Below, one piece after another: positions 557-42,560 of a DNA stretch of 49,093 nucleotides; positions within the stretch are counted from its first letter, which is position 1, and every line of letters begins with the position of its first letter. The position numbers and the translations under genes were made by a program. The DNA is from a virus (taxonomy: Duplodnaviria; Heunggongvirae; Uroviricota; Caudoviricetes). The stretch covers positions 1-49,093 of the IMG/VR virus record IMGVR_UViG_2718218136_000007; one strand, given 5' to 3'. The notes beneath the pieces were generated by a model. That model worked only from the letters and a program-made list of their open reading frames with translations, ran no database searches and was not told the DNA's origin.

Positions 557-1129
557 TCACAGCTCTGGCCATACGATATCCGGGGCTGTATTTATATCAA
601 TCCGACTCACTAATACCCGGTATTTTTTCCAGGAAGATAGCATCGAGACATCCTCATCAGTTGCCATTTCAAAATTAACAGCATCCTGCAGAATTGTTAT
701 GTTATCAGTCGCTTCCTGGATTAATCTTGCCTTTTTCTCTTCCGCCTCCCGGATCCGGAACAGTTTTTCTACTTCTGCATCTTTCACCCAGGCTGTACCG
801 TTCCACTTCTGAAACTCCCCATCCGGCGACAACCAGGTGACATTTTCCGGTAACGAGCCAAGTTCAGAAATAAATAACGCGTCGCCGGAAGCCACGTCAT
901 AGACGGTTTTTCCCCGATGATCTTCAACGAGATGCCACGATGCCTCATCACTGTTGAAAACAGCCACAAAGCCAGCCGGAATATCTGGCGGTGCAATATC
1001 GGTACTGTTTGCTGGCAGACCTGTATGAGGCGGAATATATGCGTCACCTTCACCAATAAATTCATTAGTTCCGGCCAGCAGATTATAAATTTTTATGGTC
1101 CGTGGTTGTTCACTCATTCTGAATGCCAT
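557..1129 (-). CDS. tfa: Tail fibre assembly protein (Tfa)
   Basis: 190 aa; N-terminus [48 protein letters not shown] matches lambda Tfa from memory; start overlaps stf stop (TAATG). Confidence 0.85.
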
Positions 1130-4100
1130 TATGCAAGCCTCACAATATAGTTAAATGCGATGTTTTTGACGGTGTTTTCCGCGTTACCAGCAGCGTTAAC
1201 GGTGATGGTGTGTCCATGTGAACCAATCGCAACGGAGTGCGTGTGTGCACCAATACCGACAGTATGTGCGTGTGCACCTGCAGATGCTGCTGTGCCGGAC
1301 AGTGAGTGGCTATGGTTACCATCTGTACTGGTATTAGCTAACGCCCCCGTAGACATACCTACTGAGCCTTGTACACCCCAGGTATTTTGACCTGAGCTTG
1401 TATAACCATATTGATAAGTATCTTTAAAAACACTGGGGTTAAATCGACGGCCATCTCTATGGCTGTGATTACCAGCTGCATTCGTGCTGCCACTTAAACT
1501 ATGGGTATGCGCACCAGTGTTATTCGTGGATTTAGTGCCGTAATCAAACGACGATGTGGTTTTCGTCCCCAAATCAGTACTGGATGCGCTGGCGCTGTGG
1601 GTATGCGATTTTATGCCGTCCTGTTCCTGAGACAATACGGCACGACCACTGGCGGGCTTGCCCTTAATCGTCCAGCCACGCATATCAGGGATCACGCCTG
1701 ACGGATAAGCGGCTGCAAGTTTCGGGTAGGCAGATTTGTCAAAAGTCTGCCCCTGCATCAGGGCATAACCAGACGGAACGGTATCTGATGGCCACGGGAT
1801 TGGTGCGCCGACTGGGTAGCTTTCTGGTGGAAGATTTTTCGAGGTATAAACTTCTGCCCAGTCTTCCTCAAAACCATAACCGTCTCTTGAAGAACGGTAG
1901 AACAGACCACCATTTCTGTAATGCGCCTTCATCTGCAAGGTCCGGCAACTTCCGACTCCGGTATAGAAGTTAACCAGAATATAGCTGTCGCCAGAGCGGG
2001 TGACATTGTAAGCGCCTGATTCGGCATTCCAGGGAACGCCACCATCCGCATCGGCATATGTATCCGTTGCCCTTCTGGCAAAAGCAGCCACATGCGCGGC
2101 GGTTAAAGTAATATCTTTGGAACCATCAAACTCAACACCAGAAACCCGTCTTGGCGTTTGCAGCTTTGTTGCTGTCAATGCGTTACCGTTCAGACTTGCA
2201 GACAGCTTGGTTCCAATAACCAGTTCGCCGGTTGCGTTATCAATAGCAAACGGTCTTAATGTATTCCATCCACCATAAACATCACCTTGATTGGTAAGCA
2301 GCAGGTAAGTTTTAGCGCCATCATTACGCCATAATGCCCCATACTCCCCACCTATCATTCGAATCTGATTACCACCACGCGCTACAATTTCGTCTGTGGC
2401 AAAAAGTTTTTTGCACGACAAGTTATCGTTAACGATTAACGAATGGGACTCATAAAAACCACGCCCACTCTTAAAATCAAGGATAACGTCCGCCGCGATA
2501 CATTCAGTCGCCGGATTTGTTGCCCCAAACTTATAGGTCGTATCATCAACAACGAGATCAGCACCAGGTGCGGATATTGACAGGCCATCTTCGATAAACG
2601 CAAAAACAGGGAAAGCAGCGCCATCAACATAGAACACAGAGCGCAAATCATCGCCCTTATTACTCATCATTATTGAGTGGATGGCTCGTTCATTGTTTTG
2701 ATATTGCCAGAACATTCCATAAGCATAACGCCCCCTGTCAGTCCAGCCACCAGGCATAACAAATCCGTTAAACTCGCAGTTATTCATCGGATCGCCTGCG
2801 GTTCGCGTTGCCGTGGTGATAATGACCCTTGATGCCAGTTCGCTTACTGAGCCAGCAGAACGCATAACAACAACAGGATAATATTTTCCAGATGTTGCAC
2901 CTGCAGGAGCGTTAACCCGCACATAACGCATACCACGCTTATCAGCAAAGTCTGTTTTACTGACCGCGTTAATGTTGTTCAGGAAGCGTCCCTTATCGGG
3001 TATATCAGCGCCGTTCTGGTCTTTCTGCAGACGTTTCTCTGCATTGTCATAGGCTGCTTTTACTGCCTTTGGCGTTGCCGCCAGCGTTTCAGACGTGCTG
3101 TTGGTCGCGCTGCTGAGCTGTACTATCCCCTTTTTCGTCGTGCTCGCATCCTCAAGCGCCACGGCGGATGCAATATCCTCTGCCCGTTTTGCCGCTGTCT
3201 CGGCGCGCGTTGCTGCAGATTCCGCCGTACTTTTGCTCTGTGCTGCCGCCGTCGCACTGCCAGCTGCCTCTGTCGCCTTCGTGGATGCTGTCGTGGCGCT
3301 GCCCTTCGCTGCGGACGCTTGTCTGGTCGCCTCATCTTTTGAAGCAGACGCCGATGATGCCGATGACGCCGCCGAACTGGCGGACGATGCGGCAGCCGTT
3401 TTTGAGGATTCTGCGCTGGTTTCCGACGCTTTCGCGTTCGTCTCGGATGTCTTCGCTGCGGAAGCAGACCTCGCTGCTGCGCTGGCCTGTTCAGTGGCTT
3501 CGCCAGCCTTCGTTGTGGCTGTTGAAGCAGACGATGCGGCACTTTCTGCCGATTTTCCGGCGGCGGTGGCACTGGCTGAGGCCTGCCCGGCACTTGTTGA
3601 CGCTGCACTGGCAGACGACGCAGCCGCTGTTTTTGAGCCTGCCGCAGCCGAGGCGCTCTGTCCCGCTGCCGTTTCAGAAGACCTGGCGTTTGTCTCGGAC
3701 GTCTTTGCCGCCTTCGCGGAATTGCCTGCTGCCGTTGCCGAGGAAGCGGCACTACTGGCGCTTGATGATGCGTTCGTTTCTGATGATTTCGCTGCCTCTT
3801 TTGAGGCCGCCGCATCCCGGGCTGAGGTGGCAGCTTCTGACGCCTTCATGGTCGCGGCGGATGCAGAAGTGGCTGCTGATTGTTGTGACGCTGCCGCATT
3901 CGTTTCCGACGTTTTCGCCGCAGCGGCACTGGTGGCTGCCGCGCTTTTTGAGGACTCTGCAGCGGCAGCACTTTTTTCCGCTTCACTGGCCTTTGTTGAT
4001 GCCGTTCCTGCGCTGGAAGATGCTGACTGAGCCGACGTCGCGGCCTGCCCGGCTGATGTGCTGGCTGCACGTGCTGAGCCTGCAGCATCAGTCGCATGGG

Positions 4101-4527
4101 TTGCCGCCTCACGGGCTGATGTGCCGGCATCGCTGGCTGACTTCTTCGCGGCTGCCGTGTTCTGTGCCACCGCGGACGCGTTACGCGCCACCTCTTCCAC
4201 CATCAGTTCAAAACGGCGTAGTGCCTCCGGACGGGCATCATCCTCCGTCATGGCACCGAGAAAATCATTCAGCGTACCGGGTCGGGAATCTTCATACACG
4301 GTGATGGTCCCGGCATGTGACGGCGGGAATCCTTCCACCAACAGAATAACGCTGTACTGACCGTGCTCAACGTCCATGCTGTAACGCCCGGCTTCATCCG
4401 GATTTTCTGAGGCCAGCGTGTTCACCACCACCGTGGTGCTGTTACGTTTTGCTTTCAGCTGGATTGTGCAGTTCTGTACCGGTTTTCCTGTGCCGTCTTT
4501 CAGTACACCTGAAATCTTTACTGCCAT
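1129..4527 (-). CDS. stf: Side tail fibre protein (Stf) with long Ala/Ser/Thr-rich repeat region and C-terminal HxH-motif tip
   Basis: N-terminus [26 protein letters not shown] and C-terminus ...[11 protein letters not shown] match lambda Stf as recalled; ATG at 4527 (track start 4533 is an upstream GTG); KTSETNA-type repeats; GAHTHS/GNHSHS/GAHAHT motifs. Confidence 0.85.
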
Positions 4528-4537
4528 ATTCACCCCA

Positions 4538-4565
4538 CAAAAAAGCCCGCCTGAAACGGCGGGCT
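4538..4565 (-). terminator. Candidate intrinsic terminator downstream of lom
   Basis: Minus-strand RNA: stem AGCCCGCC / GGCGGGCU (plus-strand 4544-4551 and 4558-4565), 6-nt loop, followed by U6 (plus-strand A6 at 4538-4543). Confidence 0.45.
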
Positions 4566-4591: not shown

Positions 4592-5191
4592 TCAGAACTT
4601 ATAACCGACACCCACGATGAAACCGTCAGTGCGCCAGTCGCCACTGCCGGAGCCTTCATAAGCAATATCAATGGCCACGGATTCGGTCGGGTTAAACTGC
4701 ACGCCAGCTCCCCACGCCAGAGACGTGTTGCTGTGGCGACCGTCATCACTTCCGGTCAGCACATCGTGCGTTTTCCCCTTGTTGTCAGTTACGCGGAGAT
4801 AATCCCCGGAGAAAGTCGACACACGGCTGTAAGCCACACCCGCCATCGCATACGCGCTGAACCATTCATTCACGCGCACAGACGGCCCCGCCATTACGCT
4901 GAACCAGCGGTTACGAACGGAATCTTCATGCCAGCGGGTATCGCTGTAACGGGTCAGCTGGCGATTCTTGTCTCCTGCATAGCTGAATGACGTCACCAGC
5001 CCCAGTGTGTCCGTAAACTCATAACGGTATTTCACGTTAATCCCGTTCAGATCATCACTGCCGGGGACGTTCGTCGAGGCATGAAGATACCCCGCGCTCA
5101 GCGTGGACTGATGTTCAGACGCCCATGCAGGCGCACCGGATACGGCCAGACAAATGGCTGCGGACAAAATTGCTGCACAAACTTTACGCAT
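4592..5191 (-). CDS. lom: Outer membrane protein Lom (Ail/Lom family)
   Basis: 199 aa, N-terminal signal peptide MRKVCAAILSAAICLAVSGAPAWA, beta-barrel-like alternating pattern, ends ...GVGYKF; position between J and stf as in lambda. Confidence 0.85.
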   Translation of the reverse strand: MRKVCAAILSAAICLAVSGAPAWASEHQSTLSAGYLHASTNVPGSDDLNGINVKYRYEFTDTLGLVTSFSYAGDKNRQLTRYSDTRWHEDSVRNRWFSVMAGPSVRVNEWFSAYAMAGVAYSRVSTFSGDYLRVTDNKGKTHDVLTGSDDGRHSNTSLAWGAGVQFNPTESVAIDIAYEGSGSGDWRTDGFIVGVGYKF

Positions 5192-5261: not shown

Positions 5262-8200
5262 TCAACGAATACTGATGCCGGAAGCGGCTTTTTTGGTCAC
5301 AATCACCGTACAGTCGGTGATATTGCCTGCCCCCTGATTGCCTTTCTGGAAAATCTTAAACTCCAGAGTGACGCTTCCCCTGCCACTCGGCATATCAATA
5401 ACTGCACTGTAACTACCGGGAATGGCCCCTTTAGTTTCTCTGGATGCGATTAATACGCCGTTTTTGCGAACTTCAAAACCATAACCCGTGTATCGCGTGC
5501 CTCCTGGGTTATTTCCGCTCCCCGGATCGTCATACGCTATACCGTTAAAAATAATGGGCGGAATAATAATCTGGCGGTCAAAGTTATGATCATCGCTGAT
5601 GGTGACTGTAACCGTACCGTTTGGTGTTTCCGTGTTACCCCACGTACCGACTTTTTTCGGGAAGGCTTTTGATACAGCTTTAACGAAATCTCCTCTGACC
5701 TGGGTCGCCTCCAGCATGCCCTTAATCGTACAGTTCTGGTTAATCGTGACATTGTTGAGCGTTCCTGAGTTCGCATTCACACTGCCACTGATATCCGCAT
5801 TTTTCGCCGTCAGTCTCCCGTCTGATGTCAGGGAAAATGCCGGAGGATTACCGCCGCTGGTAATGGTGGGGGCCGTCAGGCGTTTCAGGAACACTTCATT
5901 CATGAATATCTGATCGCCCTGACCAACAAACATCGGCTTTGTGTTGCCATTCGCAGGATTAATCATCGCAATCCTGTCTGCTGCCAGCAGCACCTGACTC
6001 TGCATGCCGTCAGGGGTGTTCTCAATACCGGCACCGATACCCGCAATATAAAGGCGTCCGTCCTGCATCTGCTGCAGCTTCACTGCCCACATGCTGTTCA
6101 GGTTATTATTTGTATCAACCTGAACCTTCTGTATCTGCTGGATCGCTGCACTCTGGTCTTCCAGTTTCTTATTGACGGTCTGTGTTATTTCATTGCTGAC
6201 ATCCGTTATGGACGTCCTGATTTCAGTCAGGTCAGGCGCAAGCTGACCGTTATCAATCTGCGTCCACAGCTCCTGAGCCAGATGGGTTTTCCCTATCTCG
6301 CCTTTGAAAAAATCCAGATAGCCTGATGCATCATCACTCGGCTGACCGACAGCCTCCACGAATGCCGATTTGCCAACGGTGTTCACACTGCGAACGTAAA
6401 AATAATAATCATGGCCCGGTTTGATATTGATACTGGCGGCTATCCAGTACAGTGCCGTACCAAGATAACGCGCGCTGGTTTCAACCTGCCTGATATCCGC
6501 AATCCGTTTTTCCGAGAACCAGAACTCAAACTGTACCGTCGGGTCATAAACCGCAAGATGCGGCGTGGCAGTTATCTGAAAATAGCCCGGCGTCAGCTCA
6601 ATCCGCGACGGTGCTACCGGTGCGGCAATCCTGAACGATACCGACGCCGGATCGCCCTGCTGTCCCCACGCATTTACCGCCCGGACTGTCAGCGTGTACC
6701 GTCCCAGCGCCAGTTGCGTGAAGCGGTATGTGGTTTCCGCCGTCCGGGCCGTGCTGACCAGCCGCTCACTGCCGTCATCCGCTGCCACGGTCAGGCGAAG
6801 CAGGAAGCTCACGCCCTTCACCACCTTCGGCGTGTCCCATCGCGCCAGCACCTGATATTCCCCGCTGTCTGCAGTGACTTCGGCGGTCAGATGCTGCACT
6901 GCTGGCGGCGTGACACCATTCACCGTGCCGCTCTGGTCGCCGTCAAAGTGCGCCCCGTTATCCACGATGGCCTCTTTTTCCGGTACATGCTGCACGGCGG
7001 TGATGGCATACGTGCCGTCATCGTTCTCACGGATACTCACGCAGCGGAACAGGCGCTGGCGCAGCGTCGGCAGCTTCAGCCCCCACACGCTGTATCCGGC
7101 AACGCCGTCAGGAACACGGCTCACTTTTACCTTCACGCCGTCGGTGACGGACTGGACCTCCACGCTGACCGGATTGCCACTTCCGTCAACCAGGCTTATC
7201 AGCGTGGTACCGGAGGATGGCAGCGTGATTTCACGGTCGAGCGTCAGCGTCCGGGTCTGGCTGTTCACCGCCAGCACGCGCCCGCCGATGCTGATACCGG
7301 CATAGTCATCATCGCAGATTTCAATGACATCGCCCGGTACATGGCGAAGCCCTTCGGCACCCACGCTGAAGTCCACGGTCTGCGTTTCCAGCAGTTCTGT
7401 TTTAATCAGCCACAGCCCGGCGCGGTGTGCCTGCCCCCGGCTGGTACAGCCAAAAGCATCCATCTTCGTGACGTTACGACCGTAACGGGCAATGGCCTGC
7501 GTGTCCTCCACAAGCTCTGTCGCCGTCTCCCAGCCGTTATTCGGGTCAATCCAGTTCACCTCAACGGCATTATGGCGGTCCTTCAGGGCGCTGAAGCTGT
7601 AGCGGAACGGCGCACCATCATCCGGCATCACCACATTACTGCGGTTATAGGTCCACACCTTATCCGACGGTCGGTCCTGCACGAACGTCAGCGTCTGCCC
7701 GTTCCATACCGGCATACAGCGCATCGCAGAGCAGAAATCACTGAGCACATCCCACGCCTTGCGCTGTGTGGTCAGGTACGCATTACAGGTGATGCGCGGC
7801 TCCGTGCCGCCAAAACCGTCCGGCACCGACTGATCGCAATGCTGGCCGATGACATACAGCGCCCATTTGTCCACATCCGCCGCACCAAGACGTTTCCCCA
7901 TGCCGTAGCGCGGATGGGTCAGCATATCCCACAGACACCAGGCCATGTTGTTGCTGTATGCTGGCTTAAACGTTCCGTCCCAGATACCGCTGTATTGCCG
8001 CGTCTGCGGGTTATAGTTCGACGGCACCTGCAGAATGCGCCCGCGCAGATGATAATTACGGCTCACCTGCTGGCTGCCGAACTGCTCCGAATCCACCTGC
8101 ACGCCGACCAGTGCCGTGTTCGGGTAGCACTGTTTCACATCGATGATTTCGGTGTATGACGACCAGAGCGTTTTGTTCTGCAGCTGGTCTGTGGTGCTGT

Positions 8201-8759
8201 CCGGCGTCATCCTGCGCATCCGTATATTGAACGGGCGCGGCGGCAGGTTACCCACCACCACCGAGGCCAGATACTGCGAGGTGGTTTTGCCCTTAATGGT
8301 GATGTCTTTTTCCGTCACCCAGCCACCATTACGCTGGATCTGAACCAGCAGGCGGACTTCCGACGGATTCCGGTCCCCCTTTGAGGTGGTTTCCACCAGT
8401 GCCTGCACGCCGAAGGTAAAGCGCAGACGGTCAATGTTTGCCGACGTGATGGTCCGGGTGATCGGCGTGTCATATTTCACTTCTGTACCGAGCACCGTCT
8501 CGGAGCCGGAGGATTCAAATCCCTCCGGCGGTGTCTGCTCCTGCTCACCGGCCCGGAACACCACCGTGACGCCGGATATATTGGTATTCCCCTCACTGTC
8601 CAGCACCGGCGTACTGTTCAGCAGCACGCTTTTTAATCCATCCACCGGACCTTCAACCGGCCCTTCGCTGATGGCATCGATCACACTCAGCAGCTGCGTG
8701 GACTTCAGGTTGTCCTTCGCTTCGCGCGGGGTATGCCCCTTACTGCTGCCTTTACCCAT
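5262..8759 (-). CDS. J: Central tail fibre / host specificity protein J
   Basis: 1165 aa; N-terminus [37 protein letters not shown] is lambda J-like; position after I. Confidence 0.9.
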
Positions 8760-10806: not shown

Positions 10807-11135
10807 CAGTTCACCACCTGTTCAAACTCTGCGCTGAACTCAACACGCAGCATACTGACCCGCGACGACCATTTTGCGCAGGTCACCTTTATCTGCCGCC
10901 ACTCATAAGGCGGCGTCCACAGAAAGGCTTTCCAGCCCCCGTGCTCTTCCAGAAACGACTCCAGTACCGTGGCCTCCTCACGGGGGACAGAAAGCGTCAC
11001 GCTGTACGTTTTCAGGTTGGCATTCAGCCCGGCAGGCGCTCGCTGAGAATAGCCATCACCAAAGCGCACCTTTCTTACAGAAGGGACCGAAGCCACATCC
11101 ATACCGGGTTTCACTTTCCAGCGGAAGGTCTTCAT
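10806..11135 (-). CDS. M: Tail tip protein M
   Basis: 109 aa, lambda M-like; overlapping start/stop with L and H. Confidence 0.9.
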   Translation of the reverse strand: MKTFRWKVKPGMDVASVPSVRKVRFGDGYSQRAPAGLNANLKTYSVTLSVPREEATVLESFLEEHGGWKAFLWTPPYEWRQIKVTCAKWSSRVSMLRVEFSAEFEQVVN

Positions 11136-12242
11136 CGTCCACCTCCGGAGAACAGGCCACCATCACGCATCTGTGTCTGAATTTCATCACGGGCACCCTT
11201 GCGGGCCATGTCATACACTGCCTTCATCATCTGTGGACCTGGCAGACCATTCGTACCGTCGTTCTGAATCACCACGTTGTTGTTCTGCTCAAACCTGATA
11301 CCCTCTGAACGCCGCATTTGCGCCGGACTTCCGGTGCCACCGACATAACCGCCGGTGGCATAGCCGCGCATCAGCCGGTAGAGATTTCCCACGCCAATCC
11401 GGCTGGTTGCCTCCTTCGTGAAGACAAATTCACCACGGTGAACAATCCCCGCTGGCTCATATTTGCCGCCGGTTCCCGTAAATCCTCCGGTTGCAAAATG
11501 GAATTTCGCCGCAGCGGCCTGAATGGCTGTACCGCCTGACGCGGATGCGCCGCCACCAACAGCCCCGCCAATGGCGCTGCCGATACTCCCGACAATCCCC
11601 ACCATTGCCTGCTTAAGCAGAATTTCTGTCATCATGGACAGCACGGAGCGGGTGAAGCTGCGCCAGTTCTGCTCACTGCCGGTCAGCATCGCCGCCATAT
11701 TCTGTGCAATACCATCAAAGGTCTGCGTGGCTGCACTTTTTACCTGCGACATACTGTCCGTGGCGCTCTCTTCCCACTCACTCCAGCCGGACTTCAGGCC
11801 TGCCATCCAGCTCCCGCGAAGCTGGTCTTCAGCCGCCCAGGTCTTTTTCTGCTCTGACATGACGTTATTCAGCGCCAGCGGATTATCGCCATACTGTTCC
11901 TTCAGGCGCTGTTCCGTGGCTTCCCGTTCTGCCTGCCGGTCAGTCAGCCCCCGGCTTTTCGCATCAATGGCGGCCCGTTTTGCCCGTTGCTGCTGTGCGA
12001 ATTTATCCGCCTGCTGCGCCAGCGCGTTCAGGCGCTCCTGATACGTAACCTTGTCGCCAAGTGCAGCCAGCTGGCGTTTGTACTCCAGCGTCTCATCTTT
12101 ATGCGCCAGCAGGGATTTCTCCTGTGCAGACAGCTGGCGACGTTGCGCCGCCTCCTCCAGTACCGCGAACTGACTCTCCGCCTTCCACAAATCCCGGCGC
12201 TGCTGGCTGATTTTCTCATTTGCTCCGGCATGCTTCTCCAGC
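11132..12242 (-). pseudogene. H: Tape measure protein H, 3' fragment (gene split by IS66-family insertion)
   Basis: ORF 11132-12334 begins with 25 IS-derived residues, then continues ...TLEKHAGANEKISQQRRDLWK... to ...RDGGLFSGGGR (lambda H C-terminus). Confidence 0.85.
12235..12242. repeat. 8-bp target-site duplication (TCTCCAGC), left copy, flanking the IS66-family element
   Basis: Identical octamer at 14942-14949; flanks join to give continuous H coding sequence (...LRTLEKHAG...). Confidence 0.8.
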
Positions 12243-12295
12243 GTAACCGGCTCATTTAAACCGTCTGGTCTATTTCCTCCGGCTCTACAAAAATA

Positions 12296-12973
12296 ATGTC
12301 CATCATTTTTAATGGACACTATCGTATGAAACACCGGACCTGGATCACTGAAGCTTTACGTCTTCACTTTGAAGAACATTTACCCCGGGTTGTGGCCGGG
12401 CGTCGCCTGGGTGTACCAAAATCAACAGTTTGTAGTATGTTCGTGCGCTTTCGGAGAGCTGGCCTTTCGTGGCCTTTGCCCGCAGGCATGTCGGAGCAGG
12501 AACTTGATGCCTGCCTTTACGGACAATTTTCCACGGTACCAGTCGTACGTCCTGAAAGCACCGTTATATCCGAAGCCCCCATGGTAAAAAAACGTCCCCG
12601 GCGGCCCAACTTCCCTTATGAGTTTAAAATCGCCTTAGTGGAGCAGTCACTGCAGCCCGGAGCCTGTGTGGCGCAGATCGCCCGGGAAAACGGAATCAAC
12701 GATAACCTGCTCTTCAACTGGCGCCATCAATACCGGAAAGGTGGCCTGCTGCCTTCCGGAAAAAATATGCCGGCACTGCTTCCCGTGACGTTAACGCCGG
12801 AGCCGGATAATAAAATCCCGGCCCCCGCACAGGAACCAGAGCAGATAAATACACCGTCCGACAGTCTGTGTTGTGAGCTGGTTCTGCCGGCCGGAACTCT
12901 CAGGCTTAAAGGTAAACTGACGCCGGCGTTATTACAGACACTTATCCGCGAAATAAAAGGGAGCAGCCACTGA
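12296..12973 (+). CDS. IS66-family accessory protein TnpA (OrfA), HTH; start uncertain (internal ATG at 12581 gives a 130-aa product)
   Basis: C-terminal part ...QPGACVAQIARENGINDNLLFNWRHQYRKGG... typical of IS66 OrfA; stop overlaps tnpB start (ATGA). Confidence 0.7.
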   Translation: MSIIFNGHYRMKHRTWITEALRLHFEEHLPRVVAGRRLGVPKSTVCSMFVRFRRAGLSWPLPAGMSEQELDACLYGQFSTVPVVRPESTVISEAPMVKKRPRRPNFPYEFKIALVEQSLQPGACVAQIARENGINDNLLFNWRHQYRKGGLLPSGKNMPALLPVTLTPEPDNKIPAPAQEPEQINTPSDSLCCELVLPAGTLRLKGKLTPALLQTLIREIKGSSH

Positions 12974-13320
12974 TGATATCTCTCCCTGCAGGTTCGCGTA
13001 TCTGGCTGGTTGCAGGTATCACCGATATGCGAAATGGCTTTAACGGCCTGGCATCAAAAGTTCAGAACGTCCTGAAGGATGACCCGTTCTCCGGACACCT
13101 GTTCATCTTCCGCGGACGCCGGGGTGACCAGATAAAAGTGTTGTGGGCTGACAGTGACGGACTGTGCCTCTTCACCAAACGCCTGGAGCGGGGCCGCTTC
13201 GTCTGGCCAGTCACCCGTGACGGCAAGGTGCACCTTACTCCGGCTCAGTTATCCATGCTTCTTGAAGGTATCAACTGGAAGCACCCGAAACGAACGGAAC
13301 GCGCTGGAATCCGCATATAA
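12973..13320 (+). CDS. IS66-family TnpB (Orf2)
   Basis: 115 aa, MISLPAGSRIWLVAGITDMRNGFNGLA... characteristic of IS66 Orf2. Confidence 0.8.
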   Translation: MISLPAGSRIWLVAGITDMRNGFNGLASKVQNVLKDDPFSGHLFIFRGRRGDQIKVLWADSDGLCLFTKRLERGRFVWPVTRDGKVHLTPAQLSMLLEGINWKHPKRTERAGIRI

Positions 13321-13339
13321 CCCGTTGTAAAGTGAGGAT

Positions 13340-14911
13340 ATGGACACCTCACTTGCTCATGAGAACGCCCGCCTGCGGGCACTGTTGCAGACGCAACAGG
13401 ACACCATCCGCCAGATGGCTGAATACAACCGCCTGCTCTCACAGCGGGTGGCGGCTTATGCTTCCGAAATCAACCGGCTGAAGGCGCTGGTTGCGAAACT
13501 GCAACGTATGCAGTTCGGTAAAAGCTCAGAAAAACTTCGTGCAAAAACCGAACGGCAGATACAGGAAGCACAGGAGCGAATCAGCGCACTTCAGGAAGAA
13601 ATGGCGGAAACGCTGGGTGAGCAATATGACCCGGTACTGCCATCCGCCCTGCGCCAGTCTTCAGCCCGTAAACCGTTACCGGCCTCACTTCCCCGTGAAA
13701 CCCGGGTTATCCGGCCGGAAGAGGAATGCTGTCCTGCCTGTGGTGGTGAACTCAGTTCTCTGGGATGTGATGTGTCAGAGCAACTGGAGCTTATCAGCAG
13801 CGCCTTTAAGGTTATCGAAACACAACGTCCGAAACAGGCCTGTTGCCGGTGCGACCATATCGTGCAGGCACCAGTACCTTCAAAACCCATTGCACGCAGT
13901 TATGCCGGAGCGGGGCTTCTGGCCCATGTTGTCACCGGGAAATATGCAGACCATCTGCCGTTATACCGCCAGTCAGAAATATACCGTCGTCAGGGAGTGG
14001 AGCTGAGCCGTGCCACACTGGGGCGCTGGACAGGTGCTGTTGCTGAACTGCTGGAGCCGCTGTATGACGTCCTGCGCCAGTATGTGCTGATGCCCGGTAA
14101 AGTCCATGCTGATGATATCCCCGTCCCGGTCCAGGAGCCGGGCAGCGGTAAAACCCGGACAGCCCGGCTGTGGGTCTACGTCCGTGATGACCGTAACGCC
14201 GGTTCACAGATGCCCCCGGCGGTCTGGTTCGCGTACAGTCCGGACCGGAAAGGTATCCATCCACAAAATCACCTGGCCGGTTACAGCGGTGTGCTTCAGG
14301 CCGATGCTTACGGTGGTTACCGGGCGTTATACGAATCCGGCAGAATAACGGAAGCCGCGTGTATGGCTCATGCCCGGAGAAAAATCCACGATGTGCATGC
14401 AAGAGCGCCCACCTACATCACCACGGAAGCCCTGCAGCGTATCGGTGAACTGTATGCCATCGAGGCAGAGGTCCGGGGCTGTTCAGCAGAACAGCGTCTG
14501 GCGGCAAGAAAAGCCAGAGCCGCGCCACTGATGCAGTCACTGTATGACTGGATACAGCAACAGATGAAAACACTGTCGCGTCACTCAGATACGGCAAAAG
14601 CGTTCGCATACCTGCTGAAACAGTGGGATGCACTGAACGTGTACTGCAGTAATGGCTGGGTGGAAATCGACAACAACATCGCAGAGAACGCCTTACGGGG
14701 AGTGGCCGTAGGCCGGAAAAACTGGATGTTCGCGGGTTCCGACAGCGGTGGTGAACATGCGGCGGTGTTGTACTCGCTGATCGGCACATGCCGTCTGAAC
14801 AATGTGGAGCCAGAAAAGTGGCTGCGTTACGTCATTGAACATATCCAGGACTGGCCGGCAAACCGGGTACGCGATCTGTTGCCCTGGAAAGTTGATCTGA
14901 GCTCTCAGTAA
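13340..14911 (+). CDS. IS66-family transposase TnpC
   Basis: 523 aa, N-terminal leucine-zipper-like region, CxxC...CxxC zinc motif (CCPACGG...CCRCDH), DDE-type core. Confidence 0.8.
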
Positions 14912-14941
14912 ATATCAATACGGTTCTGACGAGTCGCTTAC

Positions 14942-16418
14942 TCTCCAGCGTCCGGAGTTCTGCCTGAAGCGTCAGCAGGGCAGCATGAGCACTGTCTTCC
15001 TGACGATCGCCCGCAGACACCTTCACGCCGGACTGTTTCGGCTTTTTCAGCGTCGCTTCATAATCCTTTTTCGCCGCCGCCATCAGCGTGTTGTAATCCG
15101 CCTGCAGGATTTTCCCGTCTTTCAGTGCCTTGTTCAGTTCTTCCTGACGGGCGGTATATTTCTCCAGCGGCGTCTGCAGCCGTTCGTAAGCCTTCTGCGC
15201 CTCTTCGGTATATTTCAGCCGTGATGCCTCAGACTCGACCCAGTCCTTTGCTGCCATCTCTCTGGCCTTTTCAAGATCGGCCTGCAACGTGGCGGCTGAA
15301 AGCCCAAGTTGCGCATTCGCTCTGTCCTCCCATGCTCCCCGGAGATTGGCAAGAAATGCTGAGGTTTTACCGCGCCGGTGGCTCCGGCTCTGATACCACT
15401 GCCATTTTTTGTCCGCCTCATCAAAAGCCTTTTCTGCTTTCTCCAGCATTCCCTGGGCAGTGTCCGGGCGACCAATATCCAGCACCGAATCCCACATGGA
15501 TTTGAATGCCCGTGCTGTCCTGTCTGCCCAGGTCTCCAGCGTGCCCATGTTCTCTTTCAGGCGGCGGGTCTGGTCATCAAACCCTTTCGTTGCGGCCTCG
15601 TTCGCCGCCTGCAATGCCCCGGCTTCATCTCCGGAACGCTGCAACTGAGCAACATACGCAATCTGCTCCGCCGTCACGTTATGGAACTGACGTGCCATCG
15701 CTGTCAGTCCCGACGTCGGGTCTGTGGTCAGCTTCCCGAAGGCTTCAGCGACCTTGTCCACCTCCACGCCGGATGCAGAGGAGAAACGCGCCACACTCTG
15801 GCTGATCGCCTCAAACTGCTCACCACCACGCACACCGGCATTCACCAGCGCCGTCAGTGACTCGCTGGTCTGGTTAAACGTCAGCCCTGCCGCCTGCCCG
15901 GCTCTGGACAGGACCAGCATACGATCTGCCGTCAGTCCCGCCTGATTGCCGGAAAGGACCAGCGTTTTGTTGAAATCGGACAGGGTTGAGTTGCCCTGAT
16001 ACCAGGCATACGCCAGCGCACCGGTCGCCACCGCCAGCGAGGTGGCCCCCACCATCGGCAGGGTGATCGCACCGGCAAGCCCCCTGAACATGGGGATCAT
16101 CCCGCCGAAGGAGTCCTTAACCTGACCCCCCTGTTGCAGCAGGATCAGCCACGGGCTTTGCCCGCCTGCAAGCTGCGTGGCCACGTCGGTGAACTGTGCA
16201 GGCAGCATACGCATGGCGGCTTTATACTGCCCGACGGAAATCCCCGCTTTCTGTGCAGCCAGCGCCTGTCGGCTCAGCGACTGTTCAACGACTGCCGCTG
16301 TTTTTTTCGCATCAGTTTCCGTACCGGAAAAATGACGCCTGACTCTGGCCATCTGCTCGTCAAATCTGGCCGCATCCAGACTTAAATCAACGACCAGATC
16401 GCCTACCGGTTCAGCCAT
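14942..16418 (-). pseudogene. H: Tape measure protein H, 5' fragment (truncated by IS66-family insertion)
   Basis: ORF 14832-16418 begins MAEPVGDLVVDLSLDAARFDEQMARVRRHF (lambda H N-terminus), runs to ...LQAELRTLE, then 36 IS-derived codons and a stop. Confidence 0.85.
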
Positions 16419-36181: not shown

Positions 36182-37010
36182 GACGATGCCCTCCGCTGAT
36201 ATTCAGGAGACGGTGAATATGAAAATTAGCCTTATCCGCCAGACGAATACGTTCAGCCTGCAAGTTAATAAGGGTTTCTACCAGAACCTGATGCGCCTGC
36301 GGATCCGAAAGAGTTACCTTGCGCAGAGCACGTAGTGCAGTTGTTACATAACTGAGTTTATGTAAGTCTTCATCATTCAGACGAGTGAGGGCTGGGACAG
36401 TAGCCATGATGGCAGCCTCCTTGATCGGTGAAATACTTCCACCACCGGAAACGCCAATTTCGCTGGTGGTGAACTGAACGGGGTTGGCGTAACCGGTGAT
36501 CAAGGAAACCGGCGCATCTTTCGATGCCCCCGCCCAGCCCACCATAACTTTGATGTGAGCAAATGCGGACGATAAAAAAGACGCTGGCGCGTCATATATC
36601 GCCTTGATCAATTCCAGGACGCCAATCCCGGCACCCGCTTTATAAGGTGCCTGAACAGTGTAACGTCCCGGAATGGCAGAATCAATGTGCTGGTGGTCCT
36701 TCACACTCAACAAAATCACGCCTGAATTTCCACAAAGGACTAAAGCACTCATGCGGGTAGTCTTTGCGAAGATAGATAACGCGCTGTGTTTCTGGTTCCC
36801 AACGAATAACATGGACATAAAGCCCTCTTCCGTCACGAAACCAGCGGTTAAGTTCCCGCACAACTCGCCCCCCACAGTCAGGTAAAGTTCTCTGTGGTTA
36901 CTTACAGCCAGGTGATTTGGTAATCTGCATTCATGCCGTAACAACAGGTGTTCAGCGACACTGACCACCAGCTGTTGCGACAAACGGTTATTTGCCGTTA
37001 AACTGTTCAT
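36174..37010 (-). CDS. Hypothetical protein (278 aa)
   Basis: ORF in operon context between the cII-like and replication genes; no family recognised by eye. Confidence 0.45.
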   Translation of the reverse strand: MNSLTANNRLSQQLVVSVAEHLLLRHECRLPNHLAVSNHRELYLTVGGELCGNLTAGFVTEEGFMSMLFVGNQKHSALSIFAKTTRMSALVLCGNSGVILLSVKDHQHIDSAIPGRYTVQAPYKAGAGIGVLELIKAIYDAPASFLSSAFAHIKVMVGWAGASKDAPVSLITGYANPVQFTTSEIGVSGGGSISPIKEAAIMATVPALTRLNDEDLHKLSYVTTALRALRKVTLSDPQAHQVLVETLINLQAERIRLADKANFHIHRLLNISGGHRHA

Positions 37011-41231: not shown

Positions 41232-42560
41232 CTGAGAGATCCCCTCATAATTTCCCCAAAGCGTAACCATGTGTGAATAAATTTTGAGCTAGTAGGGTTG
41301 CAGCCACGAGTAAGTCTTCCCTTGTTATTGTGTAGCCAGAATGCCGCAAAACTTCCATGCCTAAGCGAACTGTTGAGAGTACGTTTCGATTTCTGACTGT
41401 GTTAGCCTGGAAGTGCTTGTCCCAACCTTGTTTCTGAGCATGAACGCCCGCAAGCCAACATGTTAGTTGAAGCATCAGGGCGATTAGCAGCATGATATCA
41501 AAACGCTCTGAGCTGCTCGTTCGGCTATGGCGTAGGCCTAGTCCGTAGGCAGGACTTTTCAAGTCTCGGAAGGTTTCTTCAATCTGCATTCGCTTCGAAT
41601 AGATATTAACAAGTTGTTTGGGTGTTCGAATTTCAACAGGTAAGTTAGTTGCTAGAACCCATGGCTCCTTTGCCGACGCTGAGTAGATTTTAGGTGACGG
41701 GTGGTGACAATGAGTCCGTGTCGAGCGCTGATTTTTTCGGCCTTTAGAGCGAGATTTATACAATAGAATTTGGCATGAGATTGGATTGCTTTTAGTCAGC
41801 CTCTTATAGCCTAAAGTCTTTGAGTGACTAGATGACATATCATGTAAGTTGCTGATAGGTTTCCAGTTTTCCGCTCCTAGGTCTGCATATTGTACTTTTC
41901 CTCTTACTCGACTTAACCAGTACCAACCCAGCTTCTCAACGGATTTATACCATGGCACTTTAAAGCCAGCATCACTGACAATGAGCGGTGTGGTGTTACT
42001 CGGTAGAATGCTCGCAAGGTCGGCTAGAAATTGGTCATGAGCTTTCTTTGAACATTGCTCTGAAAGCGGGAACGCTTTCTCATAAAGAGTAACAGAACGA
42101 CCGTGTAGTGCGACTGAAGCTCGCAATACCATAAGTCGTTTTTGCTCACGAATATCAGACCAGTCAACAAGTACAATGGGCATCGTATTGCCCGAACAGA
42201 TAAAGCTAGCATGCCAACGGTATACAGCGAGTCGCTCTTTGTGGAGGTGACGATTACCTAACAATCGGTCGATTCGTTTGATGTTATGTTTTGTTCTCGC
42301 TTTGGTTGGCAGGTTACGGCCAAGTTCGGTAAGAGTGAGAGTTTTACAGTCAAGTAATGCGTGGCAAGCCAACGTTAAGCTGTTGAGTCGTTTTAAGTGT
42401 AATTCGGGGCAGAATTGGTAAAGAGAGTCGTGTAAAATATCGAGTTCGCACATCTTGTTGTCTGATTATTGATTTTTCGCGAAACCATTTGATCATATGA
42501 CAAGATGTGTATCTACCTTAACTTAATGATTTTGATAAAAATCATTAGGGGATTCATCAG
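41232..42560 (-). mobile_element. IS10 (1329 bp) insertion sequence
   Basis: Ends CTGAGAGATCCCCTCATAATTTCCCC (inside end, 41232-) and ...GGGGATTCATCAG (reverse complement of outside end CTGATGAATCCCC, ending 42560); flanked by 9-bp direct repeat TGCTGAGTA. Confidence 0.9.
41245..42453 (-). CDS. tnpA: IS10 transposase (IS4 family)
   Basis: 402 aa, MCELDILHDSLYQFCPELHLKRLNSLTLACHALLDCKTLTLTELGRNLPTKA... characteristic of Tn10/IS10 transposase. Confidence 0.9.
   Translation of the reverse strand: MCELDILHDSLYQFCPELHLKRLNSLTLACHALLDCKTLTLTELGRNLPTKARTKHNIKRIDRLLGNRHLHKERLAVYRWHASFICSGNTMPIVLVDWSDIREQKRLMVLRASVALHGRSVTLYEKAFPLSEQCSKKAHDQFLADLASILPSNTTPLIVSDAGFKVPWYKSVEKLGWYWLSRVRGKVQYADLGAENWKPISNLHDMSSSHSKTLGYKRLTKSNPISCQILLYKSRSKGRKNQRSTRTHCHHPSPKIYSASAKEPWVLATNLPVEIRTPKQLVNIYSKRMQIEETFRDLKSPAYGLGLRHSRTSSSERFDIMLLIALMLQLTCWLAGVHAQKQGWDKHFQANTVRNRNVLSTVRLGMEVLRHSGYTITREDLLVAATLLAQNLFTHGYALGKL

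Follow-up and report, generated by a model that had tools for sequence, protein, structure and literature searches.

Introduction

The side tail fiber Stf of phage lambda is known in its intact form from Ur-lambda, where it has 774 amino acids; in lambda PaPa the gene is frameshifted into orf-401 and orf-314. Ur-lambda carries four trimeric side fibers, which bind OmpC. Residues 1-91 (gpStfN) assemble into a dodecameric collar where gpV and gpM meet, a proximal coiled coil has been modelled for residues 102-393, and the fiber also has a hinge (PMC12617516). The other well-described system relevant here is the needle of T4 gp37 (PDB 2XGF). It holds seven irons; H929/H931 are named iron ligands and are essential, and the tip subdomain (residues 932-959) binds LPS and OmpC (PMC6957217).

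We analyzed the stf locus in a 49,093-nt stretch of caudoviral DNA (IMG/VR record IMGVR_UViG_2718218136_000007, positions 1 to 49,093; hereafter the window). The locus is best read as an intact stfR-type side tail fiber gene of a lambdoid prophage, whose product is predicted to combine a shaft built of heptads with a T4 gp37-type needle. Judged from sequence, we give this reading a probability of about 0.9. The features discussed below are listed in Table 1.

Table 1. Features of the stf-tfa locus. Positions are those of the window; aa numbers refer to the stf product.
Feature	Position	Strand	Basis or remark
stf (stfR-type side tail fiber) CDS	1129..4527	minus	1132 aa from ATG; Pfam and colinearity with annotated stfR
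tfa, tail fiber assembly chaperone (likely)	557..1129	minus	Pfam Caudo_TAP, E = 4.7e-37
Terminator-like hairpin	4544..4565	minus	8 bp, 7 of them G-C, then a T run; between lom and stf (sequence scan)
N-terminal attachment (collar) domain, aa 1-94	4246..4527	minus	phmmer, E = 1e-50 to PDB 9e7m/9mgh
Ala/Ser/Thr-rich block, aa 117-466, predicted proximal trimeric coiled-coil shaft	3130..4179	minus	Heptad periodicity, helix prediction and lambda homology
105-aa (15-heptad) segment, aa 304-408, in this stf and StfR, missing from lambda Stf	3304..3618	minus	Pairwise and six-way alignment
Conserved junction module ([25 protein letters not shown] and flanks), aa 441-521, Mu gpS-like	2965..3207	minus	phmmer to PDB 5yvq, 8ju3
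T4 gp34 C-terminal trimerization-like domain, aa 665-777	2197..2535	minus	Pfam PF21446 and PDB matches
Mu gpS/S'-like distal domain, aa 813-907	1807..2091	minus	PDB 8ju3 domain match, i-Evalue 1.9e-20
T4 gp37-type receptor-binding needle (predicted), aa 902-1132, including Collar domain (909-956)	1132..1824	minus	PDB 2xgf, E = 5.2e-85
Span of seven HxH motifs, putative iron-binding sites	1210..1605	minus	Motif positions and T4 alignment
Hypervariable tip subdomain, aa 1024-1069 (46 aa), between HxH 3 and 4	1321..1458	minus	Aligns with T4 gp37 932-959
Antisense ORF, 378 aa, spurious	3168..4304	plus	Fully open across the block here; stops in relatives
Antisense ORF, 311 aa, spurious	3095..4030	plus	Open length typical of codon-resampled sequence

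Results

Gene identity and neighborhood

The stf stop codon occupies positions 1129-1131 and the ATG begins at 4527; the ORF listing places the start at a GTG upstream, at 4533. Translation from the ATG begins MAVKISG, the same N-terminus as that of lambda Stf. The product matches the Pfam domains phage_tail_N (PF08400; E = 3.1e-71, profile positions 1-134 of 134), Gp34_trimer, and Collar. On the minus strand, the genes are arranged as a lambdoid tail operon, with a J-like ORF (5262-8759), Ail/Lom (4592-5191), stf (1129-4527), and tfa (557-1129); the order J - lom - stf - tfa is common to phages PhiR34_1 and lambda. The domains, and the position between lom and tfa, bear out the preliminary description of this DNA, which had called the ORF a side tail fiber gene. 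It had also called the gene full-length, in contrast to stf of lambda PaPa with its frameshift, and we found a single reading frame, colinear from end to end with K-12 StfR and with Ur-lambda Stf as reconstructed. In its N-terminal domain, gene order, and predicted proximal coiled coil, the gene agrees with the lambdoid side tail fiber family (Stf/StfR, PF08400), of which it is a member.

The start of tfa and the end of stf share base 1129. In relatives, tfa is annotated as a tail fiber assembly protein, and its product is the likely chaperone of this fiber, with a chaperone activity predicted from its sequence. The terminator-like hairpin is separated from the stf ATG by 17 nt. A convergent hexapeptide acetyltransferase ORF follows tfa at the window edge. 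Downstream of stf-tfa, no recombinase gene was found within the window, and in this respect stf does not resemble the invertase-switched fibers of the Mu Gin, P1 Cin, and e14 Pin type. A Pin-type gene is present at the corresponding downstream site in the relatives PhiR34_1 and Rac.

Closest relatives

Among 5426 complete E. coli genomes, 1230 contain at least 80% of stf. The gene aligns colinearly and without indels, at 98.9% nucleotide identity, with genes that such genomes annotate as stfR. The gene is an ordinary, common, already annotated stfR allele, every part of which maps onto solved or published structures. StfR of the K-12 Rac prophage (1120 aa) has the same N-terminal domain, the same 50-heptad block without an indel (95.6% nucleotide identity over the block), the same junction motif, the same middle region of Mu S-like and gp34-like parts, the same needle frame with seven HxH motifs, and tfa downstream. 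It differs in its tip subdomain between HxH 3 and 4, which is another and shorter one, and in the gene after tfa, which is pinR in Rac and the hexapeptide acetyltransferase gene here. The Stf proteins of PhiR34_1 (PV340559), Kati (PP925833), and mEp332 are full-length and colinear with this one, at 98.1-98.3% nucleotide identity, and carry the same tip allele, although the mEp332 record annotates stf as split. For PhiR34_1, the nucleotide identity is 98.3%, and the two Stf proteins differ at 10 of 1132 residues. One difference in the tip subdomain is residue 1062, which is Ala (GCG) here and Trp (TGG) in PhiR34_1 and in most carriers of the allele.

Ur-lambda Stf is more distant. Its first 303 amino acids, a stretch that takes in the collar domain of known structure and the first part of the coiled coil, are 87% identical (263/303). 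It has the same junction motif, a homologous C-terminal needle of 230 aa ending [11 protein letters not shown], and Tfa encoded downstream. However, its shaft is shorter by 15 heptads (105 aa), and its middle region, which lacks about 265 aa by comparison, has no sequence relation to the one found here. The lambda needle has eight HxH motifs (counted from the alignment), an extra FDYGTK repeat, and a different tip subdomain.

Domains outside the shaft

The chain named 'Tail fiber protein' in PDB 9e7m/9mgh, to which the N-terminal domain matches, is identical in sequence to lambda Stf over residues 1-94. The junction module matches Mu tail fiber protein S (PDB 5yvq and 8ju3). In the alignments, its motif is kept in lambda, StfR, and other relatives, and it is duplicated in strain AVS0226. 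The gp34-like domain is recognized by PF21446 (Gp34_trimer, E = 3.9e-27, aa 665-764) and by PDB entries 4uxe/5nxf/5nxh, which match aa 706-777. Among relatives with near-identical N-termini, total protein length varies between 652 and 1248 aa; the variation comes from the distal modules and not from the shaft.

The alanine-rich block is a predicted heptad shaft

The preliminary description had reported about 300 residues of low-complexity repeats with recurring AKTSETNA units. The block is real, but it comprises 350 residues rather than about 300, with 38% Ala, 23% Ser, and 12% Thr. AKTSETNA occurs in three exact copies (aa 204, 274, and 358), with SSETNA at aa 248. The Ala/Ser/Thr richness also stands; however, the block is not amorphous. 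The autocorrelation of the protein sequence at lag 7 is 0.39-0.43, compared with about 0.2 at the remaining lags (z = 8-10 relative to shuffled sequences), and 50 heptads stack without a break in register across aa 117-466. Ala occupies 47 of 50 and 35 of 50 heptads at two positions spaced 3/4 apart, and Ser is found in 37 of 50 at a third. The assignment of the heptad core is uncertain, because 12 of the 50 heptads have Lys or Glu in one of the two positions that presumably form the core.

In an AF2 prediction of the monomer from the single sequence, aa 98-385 and 396-499 are helical (mean pLDDT 72.9), with low-confidence breaks in the shaft model at aa 254-260 and 380-397; such a monomer run reports helix and not coiled coil. 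The block is homologous to the proximal trimeric coiled coil of Ur-lambda Stf, and through this homology its own state is predicted to be trimeric. At the DNA level, Tandem Repeats Finder, an analysis suggested in the preliminary description, returned only two marginal arrays (scores 43-50), because the periodicity survives only in the protein.

Shaft length and its variation

The block had been described as expanded and as a likely hotspot for recombinational length variation. It is expanded with respect to lambda only, by the 15 heptads (105 aa) noted above; K-12 Rac StfR and most E. coli have the same length. We rejected a recent internal duplication as the source of the 105-aa segment: its identity to any in-register part of the block is at most 53% for amino acids and 51% for nucleotides.

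The proposed hotspot would be a repeat prone to recombination or slippage that frequently changes the length of the fiber. Length variants do exist. Lambda lacks the 15 heptads, close relatives show rare indels of -28 aa (4 heptads), +4, +3, and -3 aa, the 3-aa changes sit in short Ser/Ala triplet runs and have the look of slippage, and the wider family has many shaft lengths. However, the repeats are old. The longest exact direct DNA repeat inside the block is 12 nt, the best in-register repeats of 105 nt reach at most 59% nucleotide identity, and the two marginal arrays are the only ones found. The comparison of stf length across relatives that had been suggested also gave near-constancy: the block is unchanged in length in 125 of 132 distinct close relatives (92-100% amino acid identity). 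Among close relatives, this comes near to the absence of variation that the preliminary description had named as refuting its view. Among 90 loci with both anchors, 79 have a block of the same length, 10 have the 250 residues of lambda, and one has 359. The homologous proteins found were mostly partial, cut at contig ends, and were usable for the block and not for the tips.

In a broadly spread set of E. coli genomes, with nucleotide identities as low as 88.5%, nearly all full-coverage matches to a 1171-nt query span exactly 1171 nt. Among the matches listed, two exceptions span 1303 nt; in the one examined, the extra length lies outside the block and comes from a duplicated junction motif. 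The block is covered to at least 80% in 3575 of the 5426 complete E. coli genomes. Near-identical DNA units and frequent changes in copy number among close relatives, which mark contingency or slippage repeats, were not found in this block. A slippage-prone repeat is therefore improbable as an account of the block, which is better read as a structural shaft constrained by its register and not as a contingency repeat.

Many contig matches came from unrelated genera (Pseudomonas, Shewanella, Bacillus-like, and others), with an identity of 91%, like lambda, and low coverage; some of these contigs are about 48 kb long. They look like contamination with lambda DNA and were therefore counted as copies of lambda.

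In the wider family, shaft length was counted between the aromatic residue 106 and the ATPKAV junction that the sequences share. Among representatives of clusters at 50% identity, the length classes are 376, 271, 264, 173, 159, and 152 residues. The shorter classes differ from the stf described here by 15, 16, 29, 31, and 32 whole heptads. One sequence in the wider family, P0148, with a shaft length of 123, is an exception to the heptad register.

Antisense reading frames

Both long ORFs antisense to the block exist where the preliminary description placed them, and its judgment that they are spurious holds. The alternative, that one of them is a real overlapping gene, draws its support from the frame at 3168-4304. 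This frame was fully open in none of 1000 resamplings with synonymous codons, in which the longest open run averaged 119 +/- 41 codons. It is open because none of the 27 NCT codons precedes an A, where 7.7 would be expected; this depletion of the CT|A junction is probably due to a general avoidance of TA/CTA together with the common origin of the repeats. However, 71 of 72 distinct relatives of the same length carry 1-4 stops in this frame, and since nearly all relatives do so, we reject a real gene despite the resampling result. The frame at 3095-4030 has 299 open codons versus a resampling mean of 300, exactly what codon composition predicts, and all relatives have 1-3 stops in it within the block. 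The translations are rich in Pro/Leu/Arg or in Ala/Asp/Val. Lambda has a historical antisense 'orf206b' inside stf, in the corresponding region, which looks like the same kind of artifact and likewise speaks against a gene. An overlapping gene in either frame is thus extremely improbable.

The tip is a predicted needle of the T4 gp37 type

The needle aligns to PDB 2XGF with 72% identity over 216 residues, and its Collar domain is found by Pfam with E = 7e-12. The seven HxH motifs lie at aa 975, 1007, 1021, 1072, 1086, 1095, and 1104. They include all four of the GxHxH motifs listed earlier (GAHTHS, GNHSHS, GAHAHT, and GSHGHT), which had been likened to the metal-binding His boxes of T4 gp37-type tips. 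The alignment supports this likeness: all 14 His align with T4 gp37 H883/885, 915/917, 929/931, 966/968, 980/982, 989/991, and 998/1000, so that the seven pairs are conserved in position. Beyond H929/H931, a ligand role of the other six pairs is suggested by the HxH pattern and the iron count. Homology and the seven HxH positions thus point to a gp37-type needle, for which metal binding and a trimeric fold are predicted.

The collar and the last 29 residues are almost the same as in T4. In contrast, the tip subdomain, with 46 aa here and 28 aa in T4, shows no sequence relationship, and the rest of gp37 is not homologous. The chaperones differ as well, gp38 and gp57A in T4 (PMC6957217) and likely Tfa here. 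Structure prediction of the tip, which the preliminary description had suggested, was uninformative: in an AF2 prediction of aa 895-1132 as a monomer from one sequence, the mean pLDDT was 40.3, with almost no secondary structure; a low value is expected, because an intertwined, metal-clamped trimer was predicted from a single sequence.

At least five unrelated alleles of the tip subdomain occur among the relatives, all of them within conserved HxH frames. The allele described here is found in 1143 of the 5426 complete E. coli genomes. By analogy to T4, the subdomain is the likely pole of receptor contact. A literature search on the receptor of this tip allele and on the PhiR/mEp phage collection returned nothing relevant.

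State of the prophage

The tape-measure gene H of this prophage is split by a 2.7-kb IS66-family element (window positions 12242-14941), and an IS10 is also present (RNA-OUT match and DDE transposase). Because the tape-measure gene is split, a fiber from this copy may never assemble. The gene could accordingly be a decaying remnant in a defective prophage, one with no present function that is kept only as recombination stock for incoming phages. The K-12 Rac prophage retains stfR in such a remnant, and recombination, which occurs at about 2e-6, without a hotspot and for the most part by way of Red-beta, can bring Rac stfR sequence into lambda (PMC3945230). However, the stf and tfa ORFs are intact, and only the 10 residues mentioned above separate this Stf from that of PhiR34_1, which forms plaques. 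We consider a remnant possible, at somewhat less than even odds. It is compatible with the reading of the locus as an intact stfR-type gene, because it concerns the state of this copy and not the product that is encoded.

Discussion

From the homology to Ur-lambda Stf and T4 gp37, we propose the following mechanism. Stf would trimerize, as its homologs do, and its N-terminal 94 residues would dock at the junction of tail tube and tip. Residues from about 102 to 470 would form a long, parallel, Ala-rich coiled coil with 50 clean heptads, about 52 nm long at 0.148 nm per residue, and this shaft would keep the distal half of the fiber away from the tail. The distal half would be a mosaic of Mu gpS-like and T4 gp34-like modules. 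In the terminal gp37-type needle, three chains would be clamped by seven irons, each held by one HxH per chain, and the hypervariable subdomain of 46 residues between HxH 3 and 4 would form the end of the fiber in contact with the host surface. OmpC and/or LPS would be the receptor in the case of the lambda and T4 alleles. Tfa, encoded directly downstream, would act as the folding chaperone of the needle. The fiber probably evolves mainly as distal modules are exchanged by homologous recombination, for which the conserved 5' half would serve as the homology arm.

Two points bear on the annotation of such genes. A region labelled low-complexity, as this one was, is best read as a coiled-coil shaft constrained by its register. 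Long antisense ORFs over an Ala/Ser/Thr-rich CDS should be taken as artifacts, even if they exceed the expectation from codon shuffling, as long as relatives do not conserve them.

With respect to the biology of the family, host-range information would be concentrated in the 46-residue cassette between HxH 3 and 4, and this cassette would be a natural swap point for the engineering of lambdoid particles. The lambda shaft is a short version, 15 heptads under the common E. coli form. A more speculative proposal, which we think unlikely to hold in full, is that shaft length is quantized in heptads, that the 50-heptad form and not the 35-heptad form of lambda is the prevalent one in E. coli, and that the reach of the fiber may be a second determinant of host range. 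If reach is adjusted to how thick the O-antigen or capsule layer of the host is, relative to the central J fiber, shaft length would determine host range independently of the tip, and the textbook lambda fiber would be a short outlier.

The side tail fibre gene

The stf gene is an ordinary one that has been annotated before, and the preliminary description recognized it correctly as a side tail fibre gene. This identification is borne out by Pfam domains (phage_tail_N with E = 3e-71, a domain resembling the T4 gp34 trimerisation domain at aa 665-764, and Collar at aa 909-956), by matches to solved structures, and by colinearity with stfR. The ORF was also correctly described as full-length, in contrast to the stf of lambda PaPa. 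Judged by comparison with solved structures, Stf is a chain of known modules; these are listed in the table with the other features. An automated ORF listing places the start further out, at a GTG (4533). The ATG chosen in the preliminary description was sensible, because it yields an N-terminus, [12 protein letters not shown]..., that is the same as that of lambda Stf. A J-like ORF (1165 aa) is found upstream.

The stf DNA is colinear over 3399/3399 nt with stfR-annotated genes in several complete E. coli genomes (98.9% identity) and with the stf of phage PhiR34_1 (98.3% identity), whose protein differs at 10 residues. Of 5426 complete E. coli genomes, 1230 contain at least 80% of stf. A six-way protein alignment showed the K-12 Rac StfR (1120 aa) to be another allele of the same gene, with essentially all of the difference confined to a short stretch close to the tip.

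Features of the window and modules of Stf
Feature	Position	Strand	Basis or remark
Acetyltransferase ORF, hexapeptide-repeat	1-546	plus	181 aa counted from ATG at the window's first base
Tail fibre assembly gene (tfa)	557-1129		Caudo_TAP; neighbour of stf
stf ORF	1129-4527	minus	stop codon 1129-1131, ATG at 4527, 1132 aa
Terminator-like hairpin, strong	4544-4565		between lom and stf
Ail/Lom gene	4592-5191		other neighbour of stf
H, C-terminal part	11132-12334		Tape_meas_lam_C
IS66-family element ORF	12296-12973		HTH_Tnp_1
IS66-family element ORF	13340-14911		DDE_Tnp_IS66
H, N-terminal part	14832-16418		TMP_2
C4 antisense RNA and isrK Hfq-binding sRNA	36462-36650	minus	Rfam, 82 bits and 64 bits
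IS10-like element, early region	41245-42515		transposase and RNA-OUT
IS10-like transposase ORF	41245-42453	minus	DDE_Tnp_1
RNA-OUT match in IS10-like element	42446-42515		Rfam, 98.8 bits
Dsr1-like defence protein, 1275 aa	43860-47687	minus	PADLOC Dsr1 model, end to end, 2734 bits
Stf module	aa 1-94		lambda Stf collar (9e7m)
Stf modules	aa 441-521, 813-907		Mu tail fibre protein S (5yvq, 8ju3)
Stf module	aa 706-777		T4 gp34
Stf module	aa 902-1132		T4 gp37 needle (2xgf, E = 5e-85)

State of the prophage

The prophage around stf is damaged, with an IS66-family element and an IS10-like element in it. The lambda-type tape-measure gene H (11132-16418) is split by the 2.7-kb IS66-family element (about 12242-14941), and intact phages align here as two pieces, one on each side of the gap. 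This prophage is probably tail-defective. The acetyltransferase ORF, annotated in RefSeq as "serine acetyltransferase", is convergent to tfa, whereas Rac and PhiR34_1 have a Pin-type invertase in its place. The tfa-acetyltransferase arrangement occurs in about 224 complete E. coli genomes; conceivably, the ORF is a surface-modification moron. The Dsr1-model gene, whose product carries a SIR2-like domain at its N-terminus, is an anti-phage defence gene and adjoins the prophage integrase (47870-49093). The C4 and isrK matches are neighbours within the regulatory region of the prophage.

The needle and its tip subdomain

The last 231 residues of Stf share 72% identity with the T4 gp37 needle, which has been crystallised. 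The four GxHxH motifs quoted in the preliminary description are all present as part of a set of seven HxH motifs, whose 14 histidines all align to T4 His 883/885, 915/917, 929/931, 966/968, 980/982, 989/991, and 998/1000; the numbering offset is valid because the published iron ligands H929/H931 coincide. In T4, the needle contains seven irons, and residues 932-959 form the tip subdomain that binds the receptor (PMC6957217). Homology to this needle supports the earlier "His-box" reading; an AF2 monomer prediction of the tip (pLDDT 40) added nothing.

Between the third and fourth HxH motifs, aa 1024-1069 are unrelated in sequence to T4, lambda, and K-12 StfR. The relatives contain at least five unrelated alleles of this subdomain, each inside conserved frames, and the allele of this Stf was found in 1143 of 5426 genomes. 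Because the segment matches the position of the T4 tip subdomain and has several alleles, it is the likely specificity cassette. Within it, aa 1062 (window 1342-1344) is Ala (GCG) in this copy, as in one IMG/VR locus (L069), whereas PhiR34_1 and most of the sampled loci with this allele have Trp (TGG), a codon that differs by two bases. This position is likely a receptor-contact residue.

The heptad shaft

The Ala/Ser/Thr-rich repeat block is present, although it comprises 350 residues (aa 117-466) and not the roughly 300 first estimated; it is 38% Ala, 23% Ser, and 12% Thr, and includes three exact copies of the reported AKTSETNA unit. Tandem Repeats Finder detected almost nothing in the block DNA. 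At the protein level, a period of seven is very pronounced: identity is 0.39-0.43 at lags 7, 14, and so on to 56 (z = 8-10 against shuffles), and about 0.2 at other lags. Stacked seven per row, the block gives 50 heptads without a register break. Two positions with 3/4 spacing are Ala in 47/50 and 35/50 heptads, and a third is Ser in 37/50. AF2, run on the single sequence, predicted helix at aa 98-385 and 396-499 (mean pLDDT 72.9). In lambda Stf, the homologous stretch (residues 102-393) has been modelled as a proximal coiled coil (PMC12617516). The block is thus a coiled-coil shaft. Taking the 0.148 nm rise per residue of established coiled-coil geometry, 350 residues span ~52 nm.

Two long antisense ORFs, 3095-4030 and 3168-4304, exist as described and are indeed spurious. 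In 72 distinct relatives of equal block length, the first frame has stops in every case and the second has 1-4 stops in 71; as neither is conserved, both are artefacts of Ala/Ser/Thr codon composition. The openness of 3095-4030 is that expected from synonymous-codon resampling. Frame 3168-4304 is more open than all 1000 resamplings, because 0/27 NCT codons precede an A (7.7 expected). These CT-A codon junctions are strongly depleted in the heptad block (window 3130-4179), and relatives have only 1-4; the depletion may reflect either a general tendency of E. coli to avoid TA/CTA(G) or the common descent of the repeat units. Lambda orf206b, antisense at the corresponding place inside lambda stf, is probably the same artefact.

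Shaft length and exchange of distal modules

Ur-lambda Stf, the unframeshifted protein, was rebuilt by fusing orf-401 to the orf-314 frame. Relative to it, this Stf has one clean 105-aa insertion, exactly 15 heptads. The block is therefore "expanded" against lambda only, the longer form being the common one. K-12 StfR has a block of equal length (95.6% nt identity), and a 1171-nt block query was covered to at least 80% in 3575 of 5426 complete E. coli genomes. Across a sample spread down to 88.5% identity, nearly all full-coverage matches span exactly 1171 nt; two exceptions were listed, each of 1303 nt, and in the one examined the junction motif is duplicated, outside the block. The Stf of E. 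coli AVS0226 (locus L125) has a tandem duplication of this motif, KGI(V/I)[11 protein letters not shown](T/S)LAATPKAVK.

The same block length was found in 125 of 132 distinct block sequences from close relatives; the others are shorter by 105 aa (lambda) or, in one case, by 28 aa (4 heptads), or differ by 3 or 4 residues. The longest exact direct repeat in the block DNA is 12 nt, and no pair of in-register 105-nt repeats exceeds 59% identity. This comparison ruled out the extra 105-aa segment as a recent copy of another part of the block. As a DNA sequence, the block offers little substrate for unequal crossing-over, and the suggested hotspot of recombinational length variation is unsupported.

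Proteins with near-identical N-termini range from 652 to 1248 aa in total length because their distal modules differ, not the shaft. For the wider family, sampled as representatives of 50%-identity clusters, we measured uninterrupted shafts ending at the shared ATPKAV junction. The length classes are 376, 271, 264, 173, 159, and 152 residues; the other classes differ from this Stf by 15, 16, 29, 31, and 32 whole heptads, with one exception at 123. Whole-heptad steps are the prediction of a register-constrained coiled coil, the opposite of a free-running slippage repeat.

In one relative (L101), a collagen-like GPxG repeat follows a short coiled coil in place of the distal fibre. Lambda-type stf sequence, whose identity to the query N-terminus is 91%, as it is for lambda, was also encountered on low-coverage contigs, some about 48 kb (L086-L104 and others), in assemblies labeled Pseudomonas, Shewanella, Oceanobacillus, Kitasatospora, Bradyrhizobium, and others; this most likely represents lambda DNA contamination.

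Lambda swaps stf sequence with Rac stfR through Red-beta-dependent recombination at about 2e-6, without a hotspot (PMC3945230); the conserved 5' half therefore provides a homology arm through which distal modules are exchanged. With modest probability, shaft length, quantised in heptads, is a host-range parameter in its own right.
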